Below are positions 10,573-62,487 of a stretch of DNA of 64,000 nucleotides, piece by piece. Source of the DNA: Escherichia phage vB-Eco-KMB38; sequence record OR525701.1; one strand, 5' to 3'. The notes beneath the pieces are model-generated. The model was given only the letters and a program-made list of their open reading frames with translations. It did no database searches and was not told the origin of the DNA. Position numbers and translations under genes: made by a program. Positions within the stretch are counted from its first letter, which is position 1; each line of letters starts with the position of its first letter.

Positions 10573-10635
10573 GATATTTTCCTCATTTTAAGACGATAGG
10601 AAGACATGTTATTATCTTCCTATCGTTGTACATTA

Positions 10636-13275: not shown

Positions 13276-15089
13276 TGGTGTTTAACCCTATGCATGATTT
13301 CTTTATTTTTGCCGAGATTAAATCCGCGTTCGTTCGGATTTCCCAAATAACCACAAGTTCTTCTTATTGTGTTCATCTTTTTAGGGTCAGTTTCTCCGCA
13401 AACTGAACAAACAAATCCGTTTTCAGTAGGAGTCATTTCATGGGTACTTCCACATGTAAAACATTTATCTACTGGCATATTAACACCAAAATAATCTAAA
13501 TGTTGTGCGGCATAATCCCATACAGCCTCAAGACCTTTTAAGTTATTTTTCATATCAGGAAGTTCAACATAAGAAATGTGACCACCGGTCGCAATGAAAT
13601 GATATGGCGCTTCACGAGAAATCTTTTCAAACGGAGTAATATTTTCTTCTACTGAAACATGGAAACTATTAGTGTACCAGCCTTTATCAGTAACATCTTT
13701 TACACTTCCATATTTTTCTGTATCAAGTTTACAGAAACGATAACACAAGTTTTCAGCAGGAGTAGAATACAAGCTAAAAGCAAAACCGGTTCTTTCAGTC
13801 CACTGTTTAAGATGAGCATTCATTTTAGTTAAAATTTCTTGTCCAATATCACGACCGACAAGAATATTCAATTCGTGAATACCAATGTATCCTAGGGACA
13901 CTGAACTTCTACCGTTTTTAAATAACTCAATTATATCGTCATCAGGTTTAAGACGAACCCCGAATGCACCTTCTTGGTAAAGAATAGGAGCAACAGTCGC
14001 TTTAACTCCTTTTAAGGAACTAATTCTACACATCAAAGCTTCAAAACACAAATCCATTCGTTCATTGAACAATTCGGCAAATTTCTGTTCATTGAATTGT
14101 GTTCCAATATAAGAATCTAACGCAATGCGAGGAAGATTCAGTGTTACAACACCAAGATTATTGCGTCCATCAAGAATTTCATTACCAGTCGAATCTTTCC
14201 ATACACTCAAGAAACTACGGCAACCCATTGGAGAAACTGGAACTGAAGAACCAGTAATAGCTTTATTATTCTTAACCGAAATAATGTCAGGATACATTCT
14301 TTTGCTTGCACATTCTAACGCAAGTTGTTTAATATCATAGTTCGGATCATCTTTATAAAGATTAACACCTTCTTCAACGAACATAACAAGCTTAGGGAAA
14401 ATAGGAGTTATTCCATCACGACCAAGGCCTTTAATGCGGTTTTTAAGAATTGCTTTCTGAATCATTCGTTCAGTCCAGTCGGTTCCTGTACCAAATGTAA
14501 TTGTTACAAAAGGAGTCTGTCCGTTTGAACTAAAGAGAGTATTTACTTCATATTCATAAGCTTGGAATGCATCGTATACGTCTTTTTCTGTTTTAGATTG
14601 AGCATAATTCAACGCATCAGCGATTTGCCATTTTTCTGCATCTTCAACATGTTTAGCGTATGTGCGTTTAACATAAGGAGAAAGAACTTTATCGACATTC
14701 GCAAATGTAGTTCCGCCATATTGGTGTGAAGCAACTTGTGCGGTAATTTGTGCCATAATTGCAGTAGCAACGCCAATAGATTTAGGCGTTTCAATTTGAG
14801 CATTGCCTAATTTAAATCCATTCTCAAGCATCCCCTTTAAATCGACTAAACAGCAATTAGTAAATGGAAGAGCAGGAGAATAATCAATATCATGCATGTG
14901 AATGATTCCGCTTTCATGCGCATTCATAATAAAAGACGGGACCATATTTTTGGCAATGTGCTTAGACACAATACCAGCCATAAGGTCCCGTTGAGTTGGA
15001 AAAACACGAGAATCTTTATTAGCATTCTCGTTTAAAAGGTCTTTATTAGTTTTATGAATTAATCCTTCAATTTCTTTTTCAATTTTCAT
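13272..15089 (-). CDS. nrdD: anaerobic ribonucleoside-triphosphate reductase NrdD, uninterrupted
   Basis: 605 aa continuous ORF, C-terminal Cys cluster CFTCGSTHEMTPTENGFVCSVCGE and glycyl-radical region RRTCGYLG; no intron. Confidence 0.9.
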   Translation of the reverse strand: MKIEKEIEGLIHKTNKDLLNENANKDSRVFPTQRDLMAGIVSKHIAKNMVPSFIMNAHESGIIHMHDIDYSPALPFTNCCLVDLKGMLENGFKLGNAQIETPKSIGVATAIMAQITAQVASHQYGGTTFANVDKVLSPYVKRTYAKHVEDAEKWQIADALNYAQSKTEKDVYDAFQAYEYEVNTLFSSNGQTPFVTITFGTGTDWTERMIQKAILKNRIKGLGRDGITPIFPKLVMFVEEGVNLYKDDPNYDIKQLALECASKRMYPDIISVKNNKAITGSSVPVSPMGCRSFLSVWKDSTGNEILDGRNNLGVVTLNLPRIALDSYIGTQFNEQKFAELFNERMDLCFEALMCRISSLKGVKATVAPILYQEGAFGVRLKPDDDIIELFKNGRSSVSLGYIGIHELNILVGRDIGQEILTKMNAHLKQWTERTGFAFSLYSTPAENLCYRFCKLDTEKYGSVKDVTDKGWYTNSFHVSVEENITPFEKISREAPYHFIATGGHISYVELPDMKNNLKGLEAVWDYAAQHLDYFGVNMPVDKCFTCGSTHEMTPTENGFVCSVCGETDPKKMNTIRRTCGYLGNPNERGFNLGKNKEIMHRVKHQ

Positions 15090-21558: not shown

Positions 21559-21585
21559 GTTTTACCTCCAGTAGTTGATAGGTCT

Positions 21586-21614
21586 ATAATAACATAATCA
21601 TAGACCTTGTAAAC
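21586..21614 (-). promoter_or_regulatory. sigma70-type early promoter with inverted repeat
   Basis: GTTTAC-N17-TATTAT followed by agacctatcaac; arms aggtctat/atagacct flank the -10. Confidence 0.5.
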
Positions 21615-22042: not shown

Positions 22043-23023
22043 TTATTTCAGTAAAGTTACTTCAGAGATTTCCTCCCAACCATCTTTATCAGTTGAAATA
22101 AAATCTGCTACATAAAGAGCCGTACGTAATGACACATTGCGAAGACGAGATATGTTAGCCTTCATCCAGGACAATGCTTTATACGTTTCTGCATCCGTCA
22201 GACCACGTTTCTGCATCATGTCAGTAGATAATATTACATCTTCAACTCGAACCATAATCTCTTCATTAGAGTGTACTCCAAGGTCAAGATACACTGAACG
22301 AGATACTAAAGCTTGAAGGTGTGGAGCAAGTTTCGAACCACGTTCTAACTCTTTATCGATATCAACGTTTGTAATGAAAACGATAGTACCTTCAAACTCA
22401 AATTCTTTATCAATACCCTTATCATCAAGATAAGATGATGCAGTGCTCCAGCAAACTTTGCGTTTATCACCAGTATCTAATGCTGCTTTAAGAAGGTTCA
22501 AGATATCCATATCCGAGAATACGTCAACGTCGTCGATTAAGAGAACGCTGTCTGCATCACGGTTGAGCCAAAGTTGTTCGTAAAGGCCAATACCTGAGAT
22601 TTTACCATTAATGCTTTTGTATTTGATGAAACCGTTATCATTAGCATTATTAAGCGCTCTATCCAGAGAATACGTCTTACCAATACCGGCTGCACCTGAA
22701 ATAATGAGTGAACGAATTTTGCCATCGATAATGCCATTCGTCATCATGTTCATTACTTTAAAGCGTTTGTTGATACGAGTTTTCATATCTTCAGTGCTTT
22801 CAACAACTGCAACTGGTGATGTCTCAGCTCCTTCCATTACGATATCTGATTTGAAGACCCATACTCCACGTTCAGAACCATCAATCATAACGAAAATTTT
22901 ACCGTCACCTAAGTGGGAACATTCAGGATTAAGCTTTGCCGGGAACCAGGTCTTTGTGGCAACATAAGAACCGGAGATTTCGTTATTACGATAGATACCT
23001 TTTTTGATTTGAACGTTGAACAT
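22043..23023 (-). CDS. P-loop AAA+-type ATPase, function unknown
   Basis: Walker A GAAGIGKT, Walker B VLLIDDVD, sensor-like FITN; start set at second ATG (MFNVQ) which has a ggaga SD. Confidence 0.65.
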   Translation of the reverse strand: MFNVQIKKGIYRNNEISGSYVATKTWFPAKLNPECSHLGDGKIFVMIDGSERGVWVFKSDIVMEGAETSPVAVVESTEDMKTRINKRFKVMNMMTNGIIDGKIRSLIISGAAGIGKTYSLDRALNNANDNGFIKYKSINGKISGIGLYEQLWLNRDADSVLLIDDVDVFSDMDILNLLKAALDTGDKRKVCWSTASSYLDDKGIDKEFEFEGTIVFITNVDIDKELERGSKLAPHLQALVSRSVYLDLGVHSNEEIMVRVEDVILSTDMMQKRGLTDAETYKALSWMKANISRLRNVSLRTALYVADFISTDKDGWEEISEVTLLK

Positions 23024-23061
23024 TTTATTCTCCAATTTACTCATTTCGTTTCGATAGGTCT

Positions 23062-23090
23062 ATAATAACATATCCTAAAAGCATGTACAC
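23062..23090 (-). promoter_or_regulatory. sigma70-type early promoter
   Basis: GTGTAC-N17-TATTAT-agacctatc on the minus strand upstream of the ATPase gene. Confidence 0.45.
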
Positions 23091-25318: not shown

Positions 25319-25483
25319 TTTACCATACTCGCTTCAATAAGATTCACTATGCCGTTTACCATGTTATAAGTAAACATTGGATAATTGTATTGTACTACAA
25401 CATAAGCGATAAGCAAAAGTTTCATTTTGTTCTCCATTTGTTTTTGGTAGGACTACTATAACACAGTCCTACCAAGATGTAAA

Positions 25484-25717
25484 CTACCGATTGTGTTTTA
25501 AATGTTGATAAAGTTCTTCAACTTGTTTAGGGTCCAAAACAATTAAGTCATTTTCTTGACGAAGATAAATCCATCCCTTATCCCCAGGACCATTTTTACA
25601 AAACATCACCACCGTATCATCATCTTCAGCGCTTTCAGGTAAAAGTTCAAGTACACCGTCTTCAGATTTTCCAGTATAATCGTAAAGCATAATATCCTCA
25701 CATAATCTCGTTAACAT
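25484..25717 (-). CDS. hypothetical protein
   Basis: 77 aa ORF downstream of a promoter at 25455-25484. Confidence 0.45.
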   Translation of the reverse strand: MLTRLCEDIMLYDYTGKSEDGVLELLPESAEDDDTVVMFCKNGPGDKGWIYLRQENDLIVLDPKQVEELYQHLKHNR

Positions 25718-25877: not shown

Positions 25878-25944
25878 AACGTTCTCCTCTAGTAAGTAAG
25901 GTCTACTATAACACAACCTGAGGAGAAGTAAACTGTTAAATGCA

Positions 25945-25980
25945 AAAAAGCCCCAACCTTTCGGAAGGGGCTTTGATTAG
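25945..25980 (-). terminator. intrinsic terminator, copy 1 of a 36-bp direct repeat
   Basis: agcccc-ttccgaaaggtt-ggggct hairpin (GAAA loop) then UUUUU on the minus transcript; identical 36 nt at 26568-26603. Confidence 0.6.
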
Positions 25981-26534
25981 TTTTTGTAATATCGTAAAGG
26001 GTTGATATGGAATGAAAGCATTGCGCGTGGAATAGGACGACTCAAAAGACTCTTAAGTTTCCAACCACAGTAAACACGCAGATAAAATGTAATACCACCA
26101 ACCTTAAGATAAGGTATAGCAGCGAATAATCCCCATGCAGACTCGTTCCAAACTAAAAGATATCCATGATGTGCCGGATCAGGAGATCCAGATTTAGTTT
26201 CAGCGTTGCCTTTATAGTGCCATTCTGATGAAGCTTCGCGACCTAAAACATGATACGAAAAATTATATGCTTTGTTGCGCCATAACCAAGCTACGCGTTG
26301 AGCATATTTACCTATAACAGGAATTTTACGTATTTTAGACCAACGTTCAACATGACCACGGTCACCATCGATAGGATTATCGTAAGTCATCATCCAGTCA
26401 AAGCCATAAGGTAGTTTACCTGTTTTTTCACTATGGAATGGAACTACAAATGGTGCTAGAATAATTGCTAAAATCGCTGCGATCCAATCTATAGGAACAA
26501 GAACAACCCAACTTATGTATTTTAAAAATTTCAT
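25977..26534 (-). CDS. hypothetical membrane protein, late-promoter driven (T4 rI.1 position)
   Basis: 185 aa, N-terminal TM segment; TATAAATA late promoter 25 nt upstream; flanked by identical terminator repeats. Confidence 0.55.
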   Translation of the reverse strand: MKFLKYISWVVLVPIDWIAAILAIILAPFVVPFHSEKTGKLPYGFDWMMTYDNPIDGDRGHVERWSKIRKIPVIGKYAQRVAWLWRNKAYNFSYHVLGREASSEWHYKGNAETKSGSPDPAHHGYLLVWNESAWGLFAAIPYLKVGGITFYLRVYCGWKLKSLLSRPIPRAMLSFHINPLRYYKN

Positions 26535-26567: not shown

Positions 26568-26603
26568 AAAAAGCCCCAACCTTTCGGAAGGGGCTTTGAT
26601 TAG
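26568..26603 (-). terminator. intrinsic terminator, copy 2 of the 36-bp direct repeat
   Basis: Same 36 nt as 25945-25980, immediately after the rI stop. Confidence 0.6.
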
Positions 26604-30150: not shown

Positions 30151-30178
30151 TTTGATTTCTCCTCTAGTTGACATGTCT

Positions 30179-30207
30179 ATAGTAACACAACTAGAGGAGA
30201 AGTAAAC
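30179..30207 (-). promoter_or_regulatory. sigma70-type early promoter
   Basis: GTTTAC-ttctcctctagttgtgt-TACTAT on the minus strand upstream of regB. Confidence 0.45.
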
Positions 30208-33706: not shown

Positions 33707-33733
33707 AATTTCCTCCAAGTAGTTGATGAATGT

Positions 33734-33763
33734 ATAGTATCAAAACCCTTGGAGGAAGTAAAC
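33734..33763 (-). promoter_or_regulatory. sigma70-type early promoter
   Basis: GTTTAC-N18-TACTAT on minus strand upstream of denV. Confidence 0.4.
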
Positions 33764-33764
33764 A

Positions 33765-34046
33765 CTATTTTTCTGAAGCGCCTGAAATATATTTTTCAAG
33801 ACGTTGTTTCATCAGCGAGCCGTTCTTAGCGATTTCTTCCGGTTTATCGCACATACGCAACAAGGCTTCAAGCTTAACGATATCACTGGTGCGCTCAAAT
33901 TTGCGAGTATCTATCTTACTAGCAAGTTCAGAAATACGTGCTAATAGACTTTCAGCTTCAACCAAAGCTGCACCTAGCTTAGTTGCAAATGTGTCAGTAG
34001 CTTCGTTAAGAATAGATTCTGATAAAAATTCACTATATGTTTTCAT
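33765..34046 (-). CDS. internal protein-like ([13 protein letters not shown])
   Basis: Start set at the MKTYSEFL Met; helical body. Confidence 0.6.
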
Positions 34047-34531
34047 ATATACGCTTTCCAAGTTCCTGTTTTAAATGTTGATATTACGCGTTTCGCGCGA
34101 TTGGGTGTCTGACGATACCATTTAGATTGGGCTAGATTTACTGCCGCTTCGTCCCAACGTTTCTGTTGAAGCATACGAAGAGAATTAGTAAAACCGGCGA
34201 CGCCTGCTACACCCATTTGGAAGACCATATTGACCAATGCACAACGACGAACCGCATCTAAAGAATCGTATACCGGTTTAAGTTTAGCATTACCCAAGAT
34301 TCCGCGAACGGCTTTATCAACGTCTTCATTAAATAGCTTTTCAGCCTCATCAAGGGTAATTGGACCGTTGCATTTACGGCCGATCATTCTGTCAAGTTCA
34401 GCTTTAGCTACGGCTAAAGATGGGTTCTTTGTTACTAAATGGCCTATGCCAATCGTCCAAAAGCCTTCAGTGTCTTTGTATAAAGTCAGTCTAAGACCTT
34501 CGTCATTACGAAGCATTTCAAATATATTCAT
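34043..34531 (-). CDS. e: lysozyme (endolysin) e
   Basis: [32 protein letters not shown]..., close to T4 lysozyme; ggaggtatt SD. Confidence 0.9.
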
Positions 34532-34565
34532 AATACCTCCCACGTTTATAGGAGGTATTTATTAC

Positions 34566-35024
34566 TTATAGGAGGGTAGTGAGCACCTTATATAATGATT
34601 TGCCCATTACATATTCCCATTGAGAAGGTTTAATTAAAGCGAATGCATCAAATTCAGGAATCTGACGTCCGTCCGGGAATGTATGATAGGAATTACAAAC
34701 ACTATTTCTGAATTGCTCGTGCTCTACAGGGATGGTATATAGGAACAGGTGAATATTCTTATTGTCTGAGTAATGATGTTCACCTAGGTCTTTCAGGAAG
34801 GCAGGGTCATATTGTGTAAACCCAGTTTCTTCTTCGCATTCACGAATAGCGGCTTCGATAGGAGATTCGCCGGGCTCGACACGACCTTTAGGAATATCCC
34901 ACCGATGAGCTAAAGAACCTTTAGGACGAGAACCAGTTACACGCCCCATGAATAATTCTTTATCTTCGGTAAGGAAAATAATACCAGCTGATAGTTCTTT
35001 CACTTTATTTTTCTTACTCATCAT
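34566..35024 (-). CDS. nudE: Nudix hydrolase NudE
   Basis: Nudix box GRVEPGESPIEAAIRECEEETG; start at ATG overlapping upstream stop (ATGA). Confidence 0.75.
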   Translation of the reverse strand: MMSKKNKVKELSAGIIFLTEDKELFMGRVTGSRPKGSLAHRWDIPKGRVEPGESPIEAAIRECEEETGFTQYDPAFLKDLGEHHYSDNKNIHLFLYTIPVEHEQFRNSVCNSYHTFPDGRQIPEFDAFALIKPSQWEYVMGKSLYKVLTTLL

Positions 35025-35512
35025 CTCAAATTCCTGCATTCAGTAATAAAACGTTCAACTTCATTATTCTTGGCCTTTATCTTGGCTTTATGTTCTTGTA
35101 AACTACTTTTAATAAGATTAATAATGATGGCGGCGGTACCGCCGCCAATGATGCCACCAACACCACTTATGATACTAGATGCTAATAAGATAGCAATAAT
35201 ATCAACAAAACCGAAAGAACTCACCTTAGTACTGAAAAACCATATAGACGGTGCAAATATAATCCATCCTGTTATCCATTGACACTTATTGAAAAACTTT
35301 TCAAGCTCAGCTTGAGTTGTTCGTATTACTTCATCGATAGGTTGATATCCATTAATGTATCTGTTCACGATAATACCTGCTGGCTGGTCGATTTTAAATG
35401 CTTGACAATGGCGTTTCACTAAGTATGATGGACATCCTGTCCAATCTATAGAATAATATGAAATACCTTCGTCGCCATCGTCCATGTTTGTCCAGTGAAT
35501 TTTATGTATCAT
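35021..35512 (-). CDS. hypothetical membrane protein, C-terminal FITECR motif
   Basis: 163 aa, glycine-rich TM segment, ends ERFITECRNLR. Confidence 0.5.
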   Translation of the reverse strand: MIHKIHWTNMDDGDEGISYYSIDWTGCPSYLVKRHCQAFKIDQPAGIIVNRYINGYQPIDEVIRTTQAELEKFFNKCQWITGWIIFAPSIWFFSTKVSSFGFVDIIAILLASSIISGVGGIIGGGTAAIIINLIKSSLQEHKAKIKAKNNEVERFITECRNLR

Positions 35513-36198
35513 TACCAGCCTTCCATAGGGAATTCCAGATAAACTTGGGCGTTGACACGAATTTCATTGGTAATCTTTTTAACTCGGTCTGTATTACGAG
35601 ATACACGTCCGAACCAACGCCATCCATTACTAATTGCACGAGAACCAGTGTGCCATGTTTGCCAATCAAACTGAAGAAGAGTACGATCTGGAGCTTCCCA
35701 TTTCTCTAGTTCGCCTTTTTCGATTTTTTCGAGGACTTCTTTGTGCCACTGGCGATAGATAAGTTCGCCATCAGGAATCTGACTGAACTCTGCAGTTCCT
35801 GTTGCAAAATGAGTAGGACACACATCAGCGTTAACAAGACCAAGAATATGTTCAGAATGGTAACGAGGGTTGTCATAATCAGGTTGTCCTGCAGTAATAA
35901 AGTGTTGACCTACCGGAATATCAGGGCGTGGTACATCGTCATGGTGATAACCTGGGATAGCAGGGTACCAACCAGGCATCAGCATGTGGACTCGTGAATC
36001 AAATACAACCTGGTCGGTGTTCCAATCATCAGGCAAGTTCATGATGAAGCTGCGAGTAATAGGACCGCCGTTATTATAAGCAAATTCTAAACTACAGTTA
36101 AAGAACATAGGCTCGTTCTTGATTTTATCATTAGAAATACCGCCGGCAAAACCACCTACTGCACGAGCTTGACTATTAAACACTTTAGAACTATTCAT
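35512..36198 (-). CDS. hypothetical protein
   Basis: 228 aa ORF, W/H-rich. Confidence 0.5.
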   Translation of the reverse strand: MNSSKVFNSQARAVGGFAGGISNDKIKNEPMFFNCSLEFAYNNGGPITRSFIMNLPDDWNTDQVVFDSRVHMLMPGWYPAIPGYHHDDVPRPDIPVGQHFITAGQPDYDNPRYHSEHILGLVNADVCPTHFATGTAEFSQIPDGELIYRQWHKEVLEKIEKGELEKWEAPDRTLLQFDWQTWHTGSRAISNGWRWFGRVSRNTDRVKKITNEIRVNAQVYLEFPMEGW

Positions 36199-36199
36199 A

Positions 36200-36505
36200 T
36201 TATTTTCCTCGACATTCTTTAATGAAATTTTCTAGATTGGTAGATTCAATAGCTTTTTTACGAGCTTCTGCGTGTTCTTCTTCAGACAATTTACGTTTAT
36301 AATTGACCCAGACATTATGGTCGAAACCAGTCGTGGCATATAATATCAATGCTCCAACGAATAGCAAAAACGGCGATAAGAATACAAAACCAGGAACACC
36401 ATCCATATCGTAAGCCTTTTGTAATACTGCAACAGAAAGAGCTACGTAAAAAGGTGATGCAAGTATTGTTAAAAGACCAATTCGGTTGGTTTCTGTTAAT
36501 TTCAT
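36200..36505 (-). CDS. hypothetical membrane protein, C-terminal FIKECR motif
   Basis: 101 aa, two TM helices, ends LENFIKECRGK. Confidence 0.5.
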   Translation of the reverse strand: MKLTETNRIGLLTILASPFYVALSVAVLQKAYDMDGVPGFVFLSPFLLFVGALILYATTGFDHNVWVNYKRKLSEEEHAEARKKAIESTNLENFIKECRGK

Positions 36506-36531
36506 AATATTCTCCTCAAGTTGATAGGACT

Positions 36532-36561
36532 ACTATAACATAGTCCTATAATTGTGTAAAC
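36532..36561 (-). promoter_or_regulatory. sigma70-type early promoter with inverted repeat around -10
   Basis: GTTTAC-N18-TATAGT; arms ataggacta/tagtcctat flank the -10. Confidence 0.5.
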
Positions 36562-36573
36562 AGTTTTGTGAAG

Positions 36574-37530
36574 TTATTTGAAAGGTTTTACCATATGGAA
36601 ATTTTGTTTGAAACGTTTGACGTAATCGTCATGTCCTAAGCGTTGGTACATACTTACAACTTTGCTGTAGTTTTCCCAGGCGTATTCACGGAACCAACCG
36701 GAGGTGATGCTTGTGCAAACTTTTTCTAATGCCATCATGAAACTGGCTTCAGAGTTAATTTCAAAGTTATTAGGAATCTGAGAACGTTCTAATGCTAGTA
36801 CACATGATTCTTCATATACACCGGCCAATTTGACCATTTCTGGTAACGATTCGAACTTCTCGCGTGAGGTCATGACTTCAGAACCATCTTTCATGTAAAA
36901 TGTATAAGCCGGACGGTCTGTTAGTGCAATGGCTTCGTGAATAGTATCATGGTCATATGTGTAGATGTCATCTTTAAAGAATGCGCTTTTAGAAGTGTCA
37001 AGAATCGGGTGAGCATAGTTCAAGGTTTCTTTCTGGCGTTTCAGCATAATTTCAGTAAGTTCATCGTTCAGTGTAACACCTTTACCACGAAGATACTGGA
37101 TATGGTTCATAGTCTTTAAAAAGAATGGATTATTTTTCTTGAAACGATGAGACATTTTAATTGCAAGACATATCTCAGGAGTTGCCCAGTAAAACCCGGT
37201 CAAACGATCTTTAGTCAAATTTTTCTTGGCGTATTTTAAAAGGTCATAAGAAGACGTGAAATCTTCAGGAGTGAGTTCACCGACTAATTCACGAACATTA
37301 GTGATTGCCGGAACAATATATGCTTCAAAATGAGTTTCGCGTCCATTATGGAAGCATTTGAAAACTTGGACATCAGGGTTATCTTGGTGAACATATACAC
37401 CCATCATTTGATTTTTGAATGCATTCCAAGAACCTTGGTCCGCAATAAAGTCCCAATCGCTATTTTTGATAGCGCTAGAATCAATAAGACCATGATAGTG
37501 AAGTGCACGAGAACCAATAACTAACATCAT
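36574..37530 (-). CDS. hypothetical protein, possible nucleotidyltransferase fold
   Basis: N-terminal VIGSRALHYHGLIDSSAIKNSDWDF resembles a G-S...D-x-D NTase core; weak. Confidence 0.5.
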   Translation of the reverse strand: MMLVIGSRALHYHGLIDSSAIKNSDWDFIADQGSWNAFKNQMMGVYVHQDNPDVQVFKCFHNGRETHFEAYIVPAITNVRELVGELTPEDFTSSYDLLKYAKKNLTKDRLTGFYWATPEICLAIKMSHRFKKNNPFFLKTMNHIQYLRGKGVTLNDELTEIMLKRQKETLNYAHPILDTSKSAFFKDDIYTYDHDTIHEAIALTDRPAYTFYMKDGSEVMTSREKFESLPEMVKLAGVYEESCVLALERSQIPNNFEINSEASFMMALEKVCTSITSGWFREYAWENYSKVVSMYQRLGHDDYVKRFKQNFHMVKPFK

Positions 37531-37558
37531 AATATTTTCCTCGGATTAATTCATCAAC

Positions 37559-37810
37559 TTAAATTTCACGACATGCGATATTATATTCATCCCATAGGTC
37601 ATCATGTGAAGCCTCTACCAATGGAACGATTGTACCGTTTATGTCTTCATTATAAGGGCAAATTGTACAGTGCGCATCTTCGAATCGGATGCCTTTGTGT
37701 TCAGATTTTTTATAACGCATATCGAATAACTTTGCAAACTTTTCACGAGTAATAGTTTTAGCAACTACTTCGGTTCCAATACTTTCGTAATAAATCATTG
37801 TGGACTCCAT
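37559..37810 (-). CDS. hypothetical protein
   Basis: 83 aa ORF. Confidence 0.45.
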   Translation of the reverse strand: MESTMIYYESIGTEVVAKTITREKFAKLFDMRYKKSEHKGIRFEDAHCTICPYNEDINGTIVPLVEASHDDLWDEYNIACREI

Positions 37811-37826
37811 TTAATTTGATAGGACT

Positions 37827-37856
37827 ACTATAACATAGCCCTATCTTGTTGTAAAC
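37827..37856 (-). promoter_or_regulatory. sigma70-type early promoter with inverted repeat
   Basis: GTTTAC-N18-TATAGT-agtcctatc; spacer atagggcta pairs with downstream tagtcctat. Confidence 0.45.
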
Positions 37857-37860
37857 TGTT

Positions 37861-38058
37861 TTAGCAAGAATAACTAGACGATACCCAGCCTTGAACAGTA
37901 ATGCTATTATTAGATAATGAGATTGCGTTCTGGAGATTCAGACCTGCGTTATCTTCAATCCATAATGTAACTTCTTCGCGTTCTTCTGTTGCAATTTGGA
38001 ACAGGTTTTCCAGGGCAGCTACTGCCGTACGTACAGCACAATCTAATTCACGAGACAT
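37861..38058 (-). CDS. hypothetical protein, family ending W-V-S-S-S-x-x-C (member 1)
   Basis: 65 aa, ends GWVSSSYSC. Confidence 0.5.
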   Translation of the reverse strand: MSRELDCAVRTAVAALENLFQIATEEREEVTLWIEDNAGLNLQNAISLSNNSITVQGWVSSSYSC

Positions 38059-38067
38059 ATGGTTTCC

Positions 38068-38340
38068 TTAGCAAGTGTGAGAAGATGCGATCCAACCACC
38101 AGTTTCGAGGCTCAGGTTGTAGTCGTATTGGTAAACGTCAGCCCATTCAGCATAGCCGTTTTTTGTACAACGTTCAAGATCGGCTTTAAGCTGTCCGGGT
38201 GAATGATATGTTCCACCCATACCATAAGCTGGATACAAGTCGAATGTTGTGTTTTGTTTATCAGCAATTTCTTTGGCAGCCTCAATAGCTGCATAGATTT
38301 TTGCTACAGCTTCAGCCAGTTCGGTTTGTTCTTTAGACAT
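38068..38340 (-). CDS. hypothetical protein, same family (member 2)
   Basis: 90 aa, ends GWIASSHTC; internal GMGGTYHSPG. Confidence 0.5.
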   Translation of the reverse strand: MSKEQTELAEAVAKIYAAIEAAKEIADKQNTTFDLYPAYGMGGTYHSPGQLKADLERCTKNGYAEWADVYQYDYNLSLETGGWIASSHTC

Positions 38341-38349
38341 AATGATTCC

Positions 38350-38655
38350 TTAGCACAACGCAGAAGACGAAACCCAAGCACCTTCAGTAATAACGTAACC
38401 ATTACCTTCACGCTTAACATCGCCACCATTATTTTCAATTTCATCTTTCATCCACTGGGATACGATTTCACCCTTAGGATAATAAGTACGACCGCTACCA
38501 TAATCACCTACAGAAAATGATACAGAATATTGGTCTGCGATCTTTGTTGCTTCTTCTTCGATACGTTCAGCTTGATTCAGAAGTTTATAAATTGCATCTG
38601 AAGCGGATTTGGCATCATTAAACTCTGGTACTTTAATTTCAATAATCTTACTCAT
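38350..38655 (-). CDS. hypothetical protein, same family (member 3)
   Basis: 101 aa, ends AWVSSSALC; internal YGSGRTYYPKG. Confidence 0.5.
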   Translation of the reverse strand: MSKIIEIKVPEFNDAKSASDAIYKLLNQAERIEEEATKIADQYSVSFSVGDYGSGRTYYPKGEIVSQWMKDEIENNGGDVKREGNGYVITEGAWVSSSALC

Positions 38656-39011
38656 TTTCTACATTCCTTAATAAAGTTTTCTATTGTTTCATTTTCACGT
38701 CTAGCTAGGAGTTCATTATAACTAATCATTTGAGAAGCGTAAACCTTTTTATTTTTCTTGTTATGGTTTATAAAATCGTAGTAAAAATAGACTACAGTAC
38801 AAAAGGATGCGATGGATGCAAAGGCTTGGGTATACCGTAAGTCCTGCCATTGGTCTGTGAATCCACCAGTGTTCCCTATAAATCCTAACACAACGCCGTC
38901 AATAAGAAATCCAACTAATCCAAAGGCAAATCCCATGCCAATACTCATAATAAAAATTAGAATGTTCTCACCAAGAGAAGGCCATACGGTTAAGAGTTGA
39001 GGTTTTTGCAT
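38652..39011 (-). CDS. hypothetical membrane protein, C-terminal FIKECR motif
   Basis: 119 aa, two TM helices, ends IENFIKECRK. Confidence 0.5.
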   Translation of the reverse strand: MQKPQLLTVWPSLGENILIFIMSIGMGFAFGLVGFLIDGVVLGFIGNTGGFTDQWQDLRYTQAFASIASFCTVVYFYYDFINHNKKNKKVYASQMISYNELLARRENETIENFIKECRK

Positions 39012-39385
39012 CTTATTTCCTTAACGAATTCCATAGCTTCTTCATATTCATACTTTTTAACAGCTTCATCATACTGAGCTTGGGCTTTTGCGCACTGAAC
39101 TTTCCACTCGCGAACTCGAGCTCTGTGATGACGGCCTTGGTGCCAATATCCTGCCCAATTAATAGGCATTAATAAAAACGGTACAATAAGTGGTGCGACG
39201 AACATTAATGAAAACGCTGCATCAGACGATATAACTTTATTGGAATCTAAAATAGCTCCTATAATCATAAAGATTAAAAATGCTAAAGCTAAAATAGGGC
39301 CAAATAGTACTTCGTTTGGGATTAATTTACGTTTGTATTCGTATGCCCATGGCTTAATTGGCATGTACAGGGTTGGCTTTGACAT
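38990..39385 (-). CDS. hypothetical membrane protein, C-terminal FVKEIRCK variant
   Basis: Start set at MSKPTLY ATG inside the upstream ORF end; TM helices. Confidence 0.45.
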   Translation of the reverse strand: MSKPTLYMPIKPWAYEYKRKLIPNEVLFGPILALAFLIFMIIGAILDSNKVISSDAAFSLMFVAPLIVPFLLMPINWAGYWHQGRHHRARVREWKVQCAKAQAQYDEAVKKYEYEEAMEFVKEIRCKNLNS

Positions 39386-39956
39386 ATTCTCTACATTCCA
39401 TAATAAATTGCTCAAGGATTAAATTGTTAGTGAAATTAGGACTAACAACCATAGTTTCATAAAGCGCATCAATAGCACTTAAAGCATCAACTCTTTTAAG
39501 CAAAGGCTTGCCTTCATACATAGTTTCAGAATCGACGATTAACGTAAAGTAATATTTTTTATTATCGACTAGAACTTCTGTGTCGATATAAAACATATTA
39601 GACCTCAGAAGCTTATCTCTAAAACCATAATAATCTTCTGAACGTTCGCTGATATATTCCCATTCAGTGTTTAAACAACAAACAGACCACGTAGGAGCAA
39701 CGAAATCAGTGAATCTAATATCATGGTCTGCAACTAGTTTAGCAATAGCTCCGATATCATGAATCATAATACCTGGGGCTAATAAAGATTTTCTGCTATG
39801 GCTAGCCGTTTTCTCAGTGGTCTCATAAGAAGCTGACCAGTACCATTTACGTCCGGTTGCAACATATCGTAATGAATCAACTAAAGACGTAGGTGGATTT
39901 ACCTTATCTCGGAACTCTTCGAACATCGAGTCAATATCATTATTTTGGTTTCGCAT
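39354..39956 (-). CDS. hypothetical soluble protein with FIMECREY near C-terminus
   Basis: Start at second ATG (MRNQNND) which follows an aaggag SD. Confidence 0.5.
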   Translation of the reverse strand: MRNQNNDIDSMFEEFRDKVNPPTSLVDSLRYVATGRKWYWSASYETTEKTASHSRKSLLAPGIMIHDIGAIAKLVADHDIRFTDFVAPTWSVCCLNTEWEYISERSEDYYGFRDKLLRSNMFYIDTEVLVDNKKYYFTLIVDSETMYEGKPLLKRVDALSAIDALYETMVVSPNFTNNLILEQFIMECREYVKANPVHAN

Positions 39957-39974
39957 GTTAACTCCTTTATCATC

Positions 39975-39997
39975 CAAAAGGAGGACCGGAGTCCTCC
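39975..39997 (-). terminator. intrinsic terminator
   Basis: ggaggac-tccg-gtcctcc hairpin followed by UUUUGG on the minus transcript. Confidence 0.55.
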
Positions 39998-40005
39998 GTA
40001 TTATT

Positions 40006-40599: not shown

Positions 40600-40640
40600 A
40601 TTATTACCTTTCAATTGGTGGTTTATTATCCAATGAGAGC

Positions 40641-40670
40641 ATTATACTCTGCTCTCAAGAGTTTGTAAAT
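40641..40670 (-). promoter_or_regulatory. sigma70-type early promoter (copy B of the repeated element)
   Basis: ATTTAC-N17-TATAAT; 27 of 28 nt identical to 10304-10332. Confidence 0.4.
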
Positions 40671-40897: not shown

Positions 40898-40943
40898 TTT
40901 GTTTTCCTCTTGATTTGATGTGATTACTATAACATAAACTTAC

Positions 40944-42821: not shown

Positions 42822-42896
<75 letters not shown>

Positions 42897-42902
42897 AATA
42901 TA

Positions 42903-42976
42903 TGACCCAGACCAGATTCGAACTGGTAACCTTTCCCTTATGAGGGGACTGCTGCTAACCGTTGAGCTACAGGGCC
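42903..42976 (-). tRNA. tRNA with anticodon CAT (Met, or Ile2 if lysidine-modified)
   Basis: GGCCCTGTAGCTCAACGGTTAGC...CCTCATAAGG...ACCAG-TTCGAAT-CTGGT; anticodon loop CTCATAA; D-stem pairing imperfect by hand. Confidence 0.6.
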
Positions 42977-44432: not shown

Positions 44433-44446
44433 TTGTTTTGATAGGA

Positions 44447-44478
44447 CTACTATAACATAGTCCTATCGTGTTGTAAAC
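44447..44478 (-). promoter_or_regulatory. sigma70-type early promoter with inverted repeat
   Basis: GTTTAC-N18-TATAGT; arms gataggacta/tagtcctatc. Confidence 0.5.
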
Positions 44479-44481
44479 TAC

Positions 44482-44769
44482 TTACAGAAGAGTTTTTGCA
44501 ATAATTTTAAGCTGAGCTACAGAAATATGCTTAGCTTTAAACAGTGCAGTCTCTTCAGCCGGAGAGATAACAATAGTAGCGCCATCTTTCTTAGCAGACC
44601 ATCCATCCCCTAAGTAAACAGTACCTTTTACTTCTTCACCATCAACCAGACTAATCATTGGTTTACCCTCACGTCCTTTATTTGTTTTAATAACTTCAGA
44701 AGTAAGGGATGCTTCGGTCAGAGTAGAAACGTTAGCAACAGGTGATATAAATTCTTTATAGGTTTTCAT
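44482..44769 (-). CDS. internal protein (CTS MKTYKEFISP), T4 ipI position
   Basis: 95 aa with CTS N-terminus located just upstream of 57B as ipI is in T4. Confidence 0.6.
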   Translation of the reverse strand: MKTYKEFISPVANVSTLTEASLTSEVIKTNKGREGKPMISLVDGEEVKGTVYLGDGWSAKKDGATIVISPAEETALFKAKHISVAQLKIIAKTLL

Positions 44770-44803
44770 TTTATTTCCTTGAGGCTGTTTATTTGATAGG
44801 ATG

Positions 44804-44832
44804 ATAGTAACACACCATCATCCTTATGTAAA
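44804..44832 (-). promoter_or_regulatory. sigma70-type early promoter with inverted repeat
   Basis: GTTTAC-N17-TACTAT; arms aggatgat/atcatcct. Confidence 0.45.
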
Positions 44833-44846
44833 CTGTTTTGTGAAAA

Positions 44847-57541: not shown

Positions 57542-57545
57542 TTTA

Positions 57546-57567
57546 GGGAGACTTCGGTCTCCCTTTC
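57546..57567 (+). terminator. hairpin terminator after gene 8
   Basis: gggagac-ttcg-gtctccc hairpin followed by TTTCGTG, directly before a late promoter. Confidence 0.5.
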
Positions 57568-60940: not shown

Positions 60941-62487
60941 GTAACAATACATATCAACACGTTTCGAACGAATCCGTATATGTTGAATTTGACCCTGTAG
61001 GGTCAAATTTTGATAGTTCAATAACCAATGTCCAGGCAGCCTTAGCCTCAATTAGCGCATATGGTGTTAAAGGTGTTCCTGACGCAAGCGAAGCAGAAAA
61101 AGGTGTAATTCAATTAGCGACAGAACAAGAAGTTCTTGATGGATTTAATAGTACTAAAGCCGTTACACCCGCCACATTAAATGCAAGACTTCAGTATCCG
61201 AACGCGTCAGAAACACAGTACGGCGTAACTAAATATGCAACACAAGAGGAGGCCATTGCTGGCACTTTAGACACTGTTTCTATTACTCCGCTTAAATTAA
61301 ACCAAACTATTGATAACACGTTCTCTACTCGTTATTCAACAGAAACAACTAACGGTGTTATTAAAATTGCAACTCAAACCGCTGCACTTGCCGGGTCTGA
61401 TGACACCACAGCAATGACTCCGCTTAAAACGCAGCAATTAGCAATAAAATTAATTTCTCAAATAGCTCCTAATAATGACCCGGCTTCAGAATCTATTACC
61501 GGTGTTGTGCGTTTAGCTACGGTGGCTCAAACACGTCAAGGAACTCTTCGCGAAGGATATGCAATTTCCCCGTATACCTTTATGAATTCTGTTGCAACAC
61601 AAGAATATAAAGGTGTTATACGTCTAGGAACACAAGCGGAAATTAATAGTAATTTGGGAGATGTTGCTGTAACAGGTGAAACGCTAAATGGTAGAGGAGC
61701 TACCGGTTCTATGCGTGGAGTCGTAAAATTAACGACGCAGGCCGGTGTTGCACCCGAAGGCGATGGCTCTGGAGCATTAGCATGGAACGCAGATGTAATT
61801 AATACACGCGGTGGGCAAACTATTAATGGTTCTTTAAATTTAGATCACCTCACAGCAAATGGAATTTGGTCGCGTGGCGGAATGTGGAAAAACGGTGACC
61901 AGCCAGTTGCAACAGAGAGATATGCATCTGAACGTGTTCCTGTTGGAACAATTCAAATGTTCGCAGGTGATAGCGCTCCTCCGGGTTGGGTTTTATGTCA
62001 TGGTGGGACCATTTCTGGAAACCAATTTCCGGACTATCGAAATGTGGTTGGAACGAGATTTGGCGGTGATTGGAATAATCCTGGAATTCCAGACATGCGC
62101 GGTCTTTTTGTTAGAGGAGCTGGCACAGGCAGCCATATTTTAAATAATCGCGGTCAAGACGGCTATGGAAAGGATAGATTAGGTGTAGGATGTGACGGCA
62201 TGCATGTTGGCGGTGTCCAAGCACAGCAAATGTCATATCATAAACACGCTGGTGGATGGGGCGAATATCAACGTCATGAGGCACCATTCGGAGCATCCGT
62301 ATATCAAGGTTATTTGGGTACTAGAAAATACTCTGATTGGGATAATGCGTCATATTTCACAAATGACGGCTTCGAATTAGGTGGTCACCGTGACGCAACA
62401 GGCACTCTTAACCGTGAAGGACTTATCGGATATGAGACTCGTCCATGGAATATATCTTTAAATTATATTATTAAAGTCCATTACTAA
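60937..62487 (+). CDS. 12: short tail fibre gp12
   Basis: 516 aa with repeated GVIx[10 protein letters not shown] motifs and C-terminal receptor-binding domain, T4 gp12-like. Confidence 0.88.

Follow-up and report, generated by a model that had tools for sequence, protein, structure and literature searches.

Covarying inverted repeats at predicted early promoters of an RB69-like coliphage and their possible action in read-through RNA

We analyzed a stretch of 64,000 nucleotides from Escherichia phage vB-Eco-KMB38 (record OR525701.1), called the window below, for the inverted repeats that accompany its early promoters, such as the one at 36521–36561 on the minus strand, upstream of a homolog of RB69ORF133c. 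Positions 34000–40000 are 100% identical to Escherichia phage AlbertHofmann (MZ501047) and ~96% identical to RB69, and judged by these identities the window is part of an RB69-like Mosigvirus, a T4-type phage. From 1 to ~48400, the minus strand carries early and middle genes, from gene 46 to gene 4, in a region syntenic with 31–81 kb of RB69 and 33–77 kb of T4; the plus strand beyond ~48400 carries late baseplate genes.

A preliminary description of this DNA, made from its letters, had proposed a promoter pattern on the minus strand, and the pattern holds: GTTTAC-N16-19-TAYWAT has 10 matches in the window against 0.32 expected, all 10 on the minus strand and none on the plus strand. A weight matrix restricted to the -35 and extended -10 blocks retrieves 18–21 minus-strand sites and no plus-strand site, with 0–1 site in each shuffled sequence at the lowest threshold. 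Applied to RB69, the matrix returns 25 sites, every compared one being an early promoter predicted in Nolan 2006, and the RB69 orthologs of the window promoters all belong to the same published prediction (Pe:67959 for the promoter at 36521–36561). All promoters named here are predicted ones. In the window they amount to about 20 copies across the 48 kb early region and share one order of parts, namely an A/T-rich UP region with A-rich tracts upstream of the -35, GTTTAC, a spacer of 17–18 nt, TGnTAnnnT, a start region (a)g(a/t)CCTAtcaa, and a Shine-Dalgarno (SD) sequence. The cassettes occupy intergenic gaps of ~65–70 nt; at promoter 36537, ~66 nt separate the upstream stop from the ATG, and at promoter 44454 the distance from the upstream stop to the -35 is 3 nt. 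Since the logo of Nolan 2006 is C-rich at -3 to -1, the predicted transcription start (+1) is the A of CCTATCAA (cctAtcaa). The T4 records NC_000866 and AF158101 are without promoter features, and a literature search turned up neither a genome-wide map of 5' or 3' ends in T4 or RB69 nor any account of dyad symmetry in the early promoters of T4.

The spacer of these cassettes is often the reverse complement of the block that follows the -10. All five repeats cited in the preliminary description are recovered by an independent inverted-repeat census, 1–7 nt from where it had placed them, and the hairpins have RNA minimum free energies (MFE) of -12.7 to -18.4 kcal/mol, with z from -2 to -5.4. As the main control, each spacer was paired with the downstream blocks of other promoters, a procedure that preserves both AT bias and consensus. 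The mean longest Watson-Crick run in the window is 7.1 within a promoter versus 5.0 between promoters, and complementarity of at least 8 contiguous bases is present in 9 of 17 promoters; permutations matched neither the run length nor this count (0/20,000).

The same excess is seen in a wider set, drawn from T4 (1–100 kb), RB69, VR5 (Dhakavirus), PM2 (Mosugukvirus), F48 (Marfavirus), KMB20 (Karamvirus), IMG/VR contigs, and metagenome contigs; a protein-based IMG/VR search contributed 2 orthologous loci and a metagenome scan 8. At least 8 bp are reached by 33% of 191 non-identical T4-like promoters, the corresponding shares being 2.65% for cross-promoter pairs and 5.7% for chance matches of the pattern in unrelated contigs (n = 35), this negative control consisting of sources with one promoter match only (the IMG/VR pattern scan gives mostly chance matches). 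Run lengths in the 191-promoter set are bimodal, with a chance-like mode at 4–5 bp and a second mode at 8–14 bp. In T4, 10 of 24 promoters carry a repeat, among them those of dmd, motB, mobD.2, ipI, regB, and denV.

The arms differ between promoters and remain complementary, as the preliminary description had pointed out, and this compensatory change keeps its significance once AT bias and consensus are accounted for, both in the permutations above and in a fixed-helix test. The latter used 106 promoters with 18-nt spacers, aligned without gaps and unselected for the repeat: the fixed helix has 53.1% paired cells versus 46.4 +/- 0.9 when shuffled (0/500), the covariation score is 0.294 versus 0.205 when shuffled (0/500), and slid registers of the same alignment give 32–44% paired cells. 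The variety of the arms is large, with 34 distinct 5' arms in 47 promoters of the first of two geometries described below (class A) and 17 in 25 promoters of the second (class B). Within a single frame, aaactct[arm]gagTATAAT[arm], four arm pairs are found among relatives: tgagagca/tgctctca at window 40646, gggacca/tggtccc at T4 motB, tgggagta/tactccca in L135, and cgagaga/tctctcg in RB69 Pe:42515. A stepwise path is seen at the orthologs of 25460, where the window has G-C at one pair, RB69 has G.T, and the metagenomic locus L131 has A-T. By these comparisons of sequence, the hairpin at about a third of early promoters is real and under selection. Arms so diverse, without a common half-site, rule out a dimeric protein operator. 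An artifact of chance and consensus would require that a partly palindromic consensus (TAGGA..TA / TA..TCCTA) in AT-rich DNA produce the arms by itself; the 106-promoter consensus indeed reads T..GA.TA ... TA..CCTA, and ~6% of cross-promoter pairs reach 7 bp. The cross-promoter permutation, the wider set, and the slid registers nevertheless all contradict this explanation, arms unlike the consensus exist (gacaagacta, tgagagca, gggacca, tgatgaggta), and we regard it as refuted, with a residual likelihood close to nil.

The geometry of the repeats is bimodal. In class A, the 3' arm begins at -1 to +4 after the -10, i.e., from its last base up to four bases beyond, and spans ~-7 to +2 relative to the predicted +1; the stems, of 9 bp and 43% GC on average, enclose the -10, and the median loop of 8 nt is the extended -10 itself. 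In class B, the 3' arm begins at +9 to +18 and lies over the SD: a 5' arm that contains CTCC and sits directly after GTTTAC forms helices of 8–14 bp over GGAG, closing loops of 17–44 nt. To the repeats already described, the census adds a class A case at 40634–40657; absent from the preliminary description are also a class A case at 37818–37845, the SD-pairing geometry at 30157–30201, 33710–33757, and 25882–25927, and a 12-bp repeat with a flipped loop at 10593–10626. The coordinates are collected in Table 1.

Table 1. Predicted early promoters of the window and the inverted repeats found at them.
Feature	Position	Strand	Details
Early promoter	36521–36561	-	Upstream of RB69ORF133c homolog; -35 GTTTAC 36556–36561; -10 TATAGT 36532–36537; ATG 36505
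Class A repeat ataggacta/tagtcctat	36524–36549	-	9 bp stem; 8-nt loop tgttatag; RNA MFE -12.7 kcal/mol, z -2.0
Early promoter	44440–44478	-	Upstream of tRNA.4 homolog; -10 44449–44454
Class A repeat gataggacta/tagtcctatc	44440–44467	-	10 bp; RNA MFE -16.6 kcal/mol, z -5.4
Early promoter	25444–25484	-	-10 25455–25460
Class A repeat ttggtaggact/agtcctaccaa	25444–25475	-	11 bp; MFE -18.4 kcal/mol, z -3.6
Early promoter	21580–21614	-	17-nt spacer; -10 TATTAT 21586–21591
Class A repeat aggtctat/atagacct	21580–21607	-	8 bp; MFE -14.1 kcal/mol
Early promoter of internal-protein gene	44798–44833	-	-10 TACTAT 44804–44809
Class A repeat aggatgat/atcatcct	44798–44824	-	8 bp; MFE -16.8 kcal/mol
Early promoter, aaactct...gagTATAAT cassette family	40634–40670	-	-10 40641–40646
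Class A repeat tgagagca/tgctctca	40634–40657	-	8 bp; MFE -13.8 kcal/mol
Early promoter	37818–37856	-	-10 37827–37832
Class A repeat gatagggcta/tagtcctatc	37818–37845	-	10 bp including one G.T
regB early promoter	30157–30207	-	-10 30179–30184
Class B repeat ttctcctctagttg/caactagaggagaa, regB	30157–30201	-	14 bp; 5' arm right after GTTTAC, 3' arm over SD
denV early promoter	33710–33763	-	-10 33734–33739
Class B repeat ttcctccaag/cttggaggaa, denV	33710–33757	-	10 bp; covers SD
Composite cassette	25882–25974	-	Terminator hairpin 25947–25974, then early promoter with -10 25905–25910
Class B repeat ttctcctc/gaggagaa	25882–25927	-	8 bp
Early promoter without strong repeat	23019–23090	-	-10 23062–23067
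Inverted repeat acgataggaaga/tcttcctatcgt	10593–10626	-	12 bp; 10-nt loop taataacatg; promoter cassette with flipped loop

The two classes differ in what the hairpin would do to the SD. In class B, its predicted unpaired probability is 0.65 when the RNA is short and 0.17 when it comes from read-through, with 0.71 and 0.24 for regB and 0.65 and 0.12 for the repeat at 25882–25927; in class A, the corresponding values are 0.63 and 0.53, and the SD is not masked. Comparison of the denV and regB orthologs reveals that the SD always has a pairing partner on the upstream side of the proximal start, while the sequences and the positions of the 5' arm differ. At denV, the arms are atctcctgtag/ctacaggagat in T4 and VR5 and ttcctccaag/cttggaggaa in RB69, with the 5' arm in the spacer in these three; in PM2 and KMB20, where the 5' arm falls between the -10 and +1, they are gtcctcc.../...ggaggac, and in F48 tagtagcct/aggctacta, overlapping the -10. 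The 5' arm lies upstream of the predicted start in every denV and regB ortholog examined. Conservation of the SD pairing, and neither of the sequence nor of the position relative to the -10, is the strongest argument for class B.

The VR5 promoters of regB and denV, at 14333 and 16442 of locus L125, carry a near-identical cassette, atctcctgtagg.atgaTACTATa.acctatcaactacaggaga, which suggests that the whole promoter and SD-masking cassette was copied between them. Some IMG/VR contigs that are not obviously T4-like (L021, L040, L055, L064, and L087) contain promoter-like GTTTAC-N18-TATAGT sites with complementary flanks, for example aaatatgt TATAGT atgttt and atttgtttc/gaaacaaat, and the promoter-repeat arrangement may occur outside the T4 group.

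Neither class has the tail of an intrinsic terminator. A T-run, defined as 5 or more T among the first 8 nt past the stem, follows 0 of 49 class A and 0 of 26 class B stems (mean 1.3–1.9 T); the tails are A-rich, the GC content of the stems is 0.43–0.44, and the true terminators of the same loci differ, the repeat stems being AT-rich by comparison. With no GC-rich stem and no U-tract, a canonical intrinsic (Rho-independent) terminator was ruled out for class A. As for the terminators themselves, class A repeats are rare where a terminator hairpin lies upstream, which is suggestive at 1/21 versus 40/168 (p ~0.05, the cases being non-independent). The corresponding effect for all repeats was rejected: the strict terminator definition behind it (0/12 versus 63/177, p 0.009) missed the long-loop terminator of the 25910 family, and with a broader definition the effect is gone (5/21 versus 58/168). 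The GC-rich short-loop hairpins at 57545–57564, 60986–61009, and 35128–35147, in the late region or inside genes, e.g., agggagacttcggtctccct after gene 8, are ordinary terminator-like or chance repeats unrelated to promoters.

About half of the indel events that separate the window from RB69 have a junction in a promoter/terminator cassette (23019–23083, 25972/26567, 41494, and 44747–44801), as the link to gene shuffling drawn in the preliminary description would lead one to expect; further junctions, at 40919 and 44478, are seen against L002. Two window promoters are chimeric. At 23019–23083, the window has one promoter where RB69 has two, flanking RB69ORF102c, a gene absent from the window, and the single promoter is a chimera of RB69 Pe:55296 and Pe:55018 with the crossover in their shared tgtTATTATagacctatc core. 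Promoter 44454 (44440–44478) combines the 5' half of RB69 Pe:76812 with the 3' half of Pe:76459, between which RB69 carries ipI, also absent from the window. The RB69 counterparts, in the coordinates of locus L129, are 23982/24260 for 23019–23083 and 45422/45775 for 44440–44478, and in both chimeras the crossover falls in the conserved -10/+1 core. RB69 has two copies of the segment 44747–44801, one on either side of an extra internal-protein gene. Conversely, an open reading frame (ORF) of the DUF7338 family (185 aa, 25977–26534), absent from RB69, is found between the identical terminator-like hairpins 25947–25974 and 26570–26597 (aaagccccaacctttcggaaggggcttt) and looks like a cassette inserted between duplicated stem-loops. 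Gain and loss here concern ORFs that are ORFans or DUFs, and insertion by homing endonucleases was rejected on that account. Two tRNA genes at 42823–42896 and 42903–42976 (minus strand), which correspond to RB69 tRNA-Arg and tRNA-Met, are the sole matches of Rfam 15 covariance models in 20000–48500, the promoter repeats being unmatched there; the segment 41494–42113, which flanks the tRNA genes, is replaced relative to RB69.

The repeat at 10593–10626 records a different kind of event. Its loop, taataacatg, reads as the reverse complement of catgtTATTA, the extended -10 that RB69 has in this place as part of its predicted early promoter Pe:42816, and in the window phage the -10 should be reversed and the promoter dead, with the hairpin intact. 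The inversion is polymorphic among Mosigvirus records, ~22 of which have the flipped loop and ~79 the sense form; a scan of eight loci gave no further flipped-loop cassettes. A loop inverted between intact arms is the signature of an inter-strand template switch, and shows that the arms can pair in DNA during replication and that a hairpin can outlive its promoter.

How do the repeats act? We favor, with a probability of roughly 0.55, the reading that they are the stem-loop part of cassettes of the promoter early stem-loop (PeSL) type, the hairpin acting in read-through RNA; action in RNA, with the role of class A given below, is what we infer as most likely. The preliminary description had spoken of a hairpin or a cruciform. 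Selection for a hairpin is upheld, and between the two forms the evidence seems to lean toward a hairpin formed by read-through RNA and away from a cruciform in DNA. Because the 5' arm lies upstream of the start site, it is absent from promoter-initiated RNA. Both arms would be present solely in RNA that reads through from an upstream promoter, and the hairpin would fold there alone, distinguishing read-through RNA from promoter-proximal RNA. In class B, where the SD is the 3' arm, most translation of the gene would draw on RNA from its own early promoter, which is active for a short time. In class A, the repeat would form an intercistronic stem-loop on read-through RNA that could serve as an attenuator, a 3'-end barrier, or a processing barrier, an idea for which the rarity of class A beside upstream terminators is a weak hint. 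Its position around the -10 is probably forced, since a gap of only 65–70 nt has to hold the UP region, both boxes, the start block, and the SD, which would leave the spacer and the -10/+1 stretch as the sole free bases. The conserved core of the cassette would double as a homology patch for the gain and loss of ORFans.

Several points weigh against action in read-through RNA. The promoters, the start sites, and the read-through are all predicted. Wobble pairing on the sense strand, G.U, should be favored over A.C if the constraint were on RNA alone, and it is not in any of three versions of the comparison, which are neutral or underpowered (internal mismatches 9 versus 5, helix-extension gains 42 versus 45, fixed-register cells 8 versus 12). 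The RNA model assigns class A no specific function, none of its 49 stems having a T-run, and 21 of 36 class A stems have a common register whose dyad axis falls between -12 and -11, which a role at the DNA level would fit too. The orthologs and paralogs compared are non-independent and the p-values optimistic; the slid-register and cross-promoter controls both retain this relatedness, and both agree with the significance.

A role at the DNA level would have the repeat extrude on supercoiled DNA with the -10 in its loop, and this would either help RNA polymerase to capture the single-stranded -10 or inactivate the promoter, in the latter case possibly contributing to the shut-off of early promoters. 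Hinton 2010 describes an extra consensus in T4 early promoters that is unexplained and a shut-off whose mechanism is unknown, both of which would find a place here. The class A loop is exactly the extended -10, the dyad axis shared by the 21 stems is where promoter melting starts, the absence of a sense-strand preference for G.U is what a DNA structure would give, and the loop flip relative to RB69 indicates that the arms interacted in DNA at least once. The stems are, however, short and the loops are of 6–19 nt, and a DNA hairpin of -6 to -10 kcal/mol per strand would have to pay for the loss of a 26–32 bp duplex. Cruciform extrusion with 8–12-nt loops and such energies would be very costly. 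Moreover, class B loops are too long for cruciforms and yet have the 5' arm in the same position, the denV orthologs maintain the SD pairing and not a position relative to the -10, and the shared register is also the tightest possible loop around the conserved TGnTAnnn. We therefore consider extrusion unlikely, and even less probable a version confined to class A, in which showing or hiding the -10 in a hairpin loop on supercoiled, modified phage DNA would contribute to the exceptional strength of T4-type early promoters or to their shut-off, and the loop flip would add a heritable on/off state.

The repeats could also be a recombination device or a mutational by-product with no role in expression, palindromes being prone to recombine and to switch template, with quasi-palindrome correction keeping the arms matched. 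The junctions inside cassettes, seen against RB69 and phiE142-like contigs, the two chimeric promoters, and the loop inversion that is polymorphic among Mosigviruses all point in this direction, and the PeSL authors themselves proposed the stem-loop as a possible recombination target. The inferred crossovers, however, lie in the conserved -10/+1 core, i.e., in the loop and not in the arms; such crossovers would mismatch the arms, yet complementarity has been held over 34 arm sequences. Furthermore, 6 of the 31 window repeats of this size enclose a promoter -10, although promoters make up a few per cent of the sequence, and class B always aims at the SD, so that this origin appears improbable to us. 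The function given to the stem-loop by the PeSL authors, that of an intrinsic terminator or attenuator of upstream transcription, draws support from one GC-rich stem-loop of phage phi1, which cut downstream lacZ about as much as rrnB T1, and from the rarity of class A where a true terminator is present. The missing T-runs and A-rich tails of both classes, together with stems that are AT-rich next to the true terminators of the same regions, speak against it and leave it with a small chance of being correct.

Were the hairpin to act in read-through RNA, at least a third of T4-type early promoters would double as switches that report an mRNA's promoter of origin, and the mechanism of the four late-promoter cases discussed below would extend to the early class. 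Genes such as regB and denV would then be translated in the first minutes of infection alone, despite later read-through, and the 'extra consensus' around T4 early promoters would be accounted for. The same cassettes are seams at which these phages gain and lose small genes, which is relevant to the reading and engineering of therapeutic coliphage genomes.

The closest known elements are the PeSL cassettes of T4-type phages (Arbiol et al. 2010, PMC2839356; Comeau et al. 2014, PMC4122927), whose T-even analogs at the internal-protein locus are attributed in those papers to Repoila et al. 1994. PeSL stem-loops occur in five positions, most commonly between the boxes or overlapping the -10 (Arbiol 2010, PMC2839356), and the usual T4/PST stem is AGNA-loop-TCNT (Comeau 2014, PMC4122927), a form to which tAGGAc...gTCCTa of the window conforms. 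The likeness to PeSLs drawn in the preliminary description is thus apt in both the position and the sequence of the stem. It extends to the association of an intergenic A/T-rich region, early promoter, stem-loop, and SD, repeated in many copies in variable early regions, and to the presence of cassettes at ORFan indel junctions between close relatives. Recombination between PeSL cassettes is also reported to release excised mini-circles, for which Arbiol et al. used inverse PCR on infected cells. In contrast, the phage analyzed here is an RB69-like Mosigvirus and its stems are AT-rich and without a T-run, so that the terminator role of one GC-rich phi1 stem is not simply transferable. The published text, in the portions available, contains neither a covariation test nor a separate SD-pairing class, and according to the legend of its PST figure the stems lie 'just upstream' of the promoter (Comeau 2014, PMC4122927).

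Class B resembles the arrangement at four T4 genes, e, soc, 49, and I-TevI: in their long transcripts the ribosome site is covered by a hairpin, and translatable RNA comes from a late promoter embedded in the 5' arm (PMC3014915). In both, the 5' arm is upstream of the embedded start and the 3' arm is the SD, which in class B is predicted to be open in the proximal RNA and closed in the read-through RNA. The embedded promoter is, however, of the early sigma-70 type here and not late, and the gate would restrict translation to the immediate-early window instead of delaying it to the late phase. The review lists neither regB nor denV among these genes and no early-promoter cases (PMC3014915); it notes that regB must be under tight control.

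At the DNA level, the window repeats share with another phage system a short inverted repeat at an early promoter. The virion RNA polymerase of phage N4 recognizes hairpin promoters extruded from supercoiled DNA, with stems of 5–7 bp and 3-nt loops, to our knowledge the one case in which a DNA hairpin is firmly established as a promoter component. That polymerase is a phage enzyme, whereas the loops considered here have 8–12 nt and contain a normal sigma-70 -10. Template switching at quasi-palindromes was reportedly first described in T4 rII by Ripley and co-workers, and the loop inversion between perfect arms at 10593–10626, relative to RB69, is of this kind; as a mutational mechanism, it explains one event and not 34 maintained arm pairs. 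Potential stem-loops before ipIII, ipII, denV, and tk are said to have been remarked upon by Valerie et al. as early as 1986 (Nucleic Acids Res 14:8637). Compared with these systems, our analysis mostly confirms elements that were named in 2010–2014, to which it adds formal covariation, a widespread SD-masking class, and a loop-flip polymorphism.

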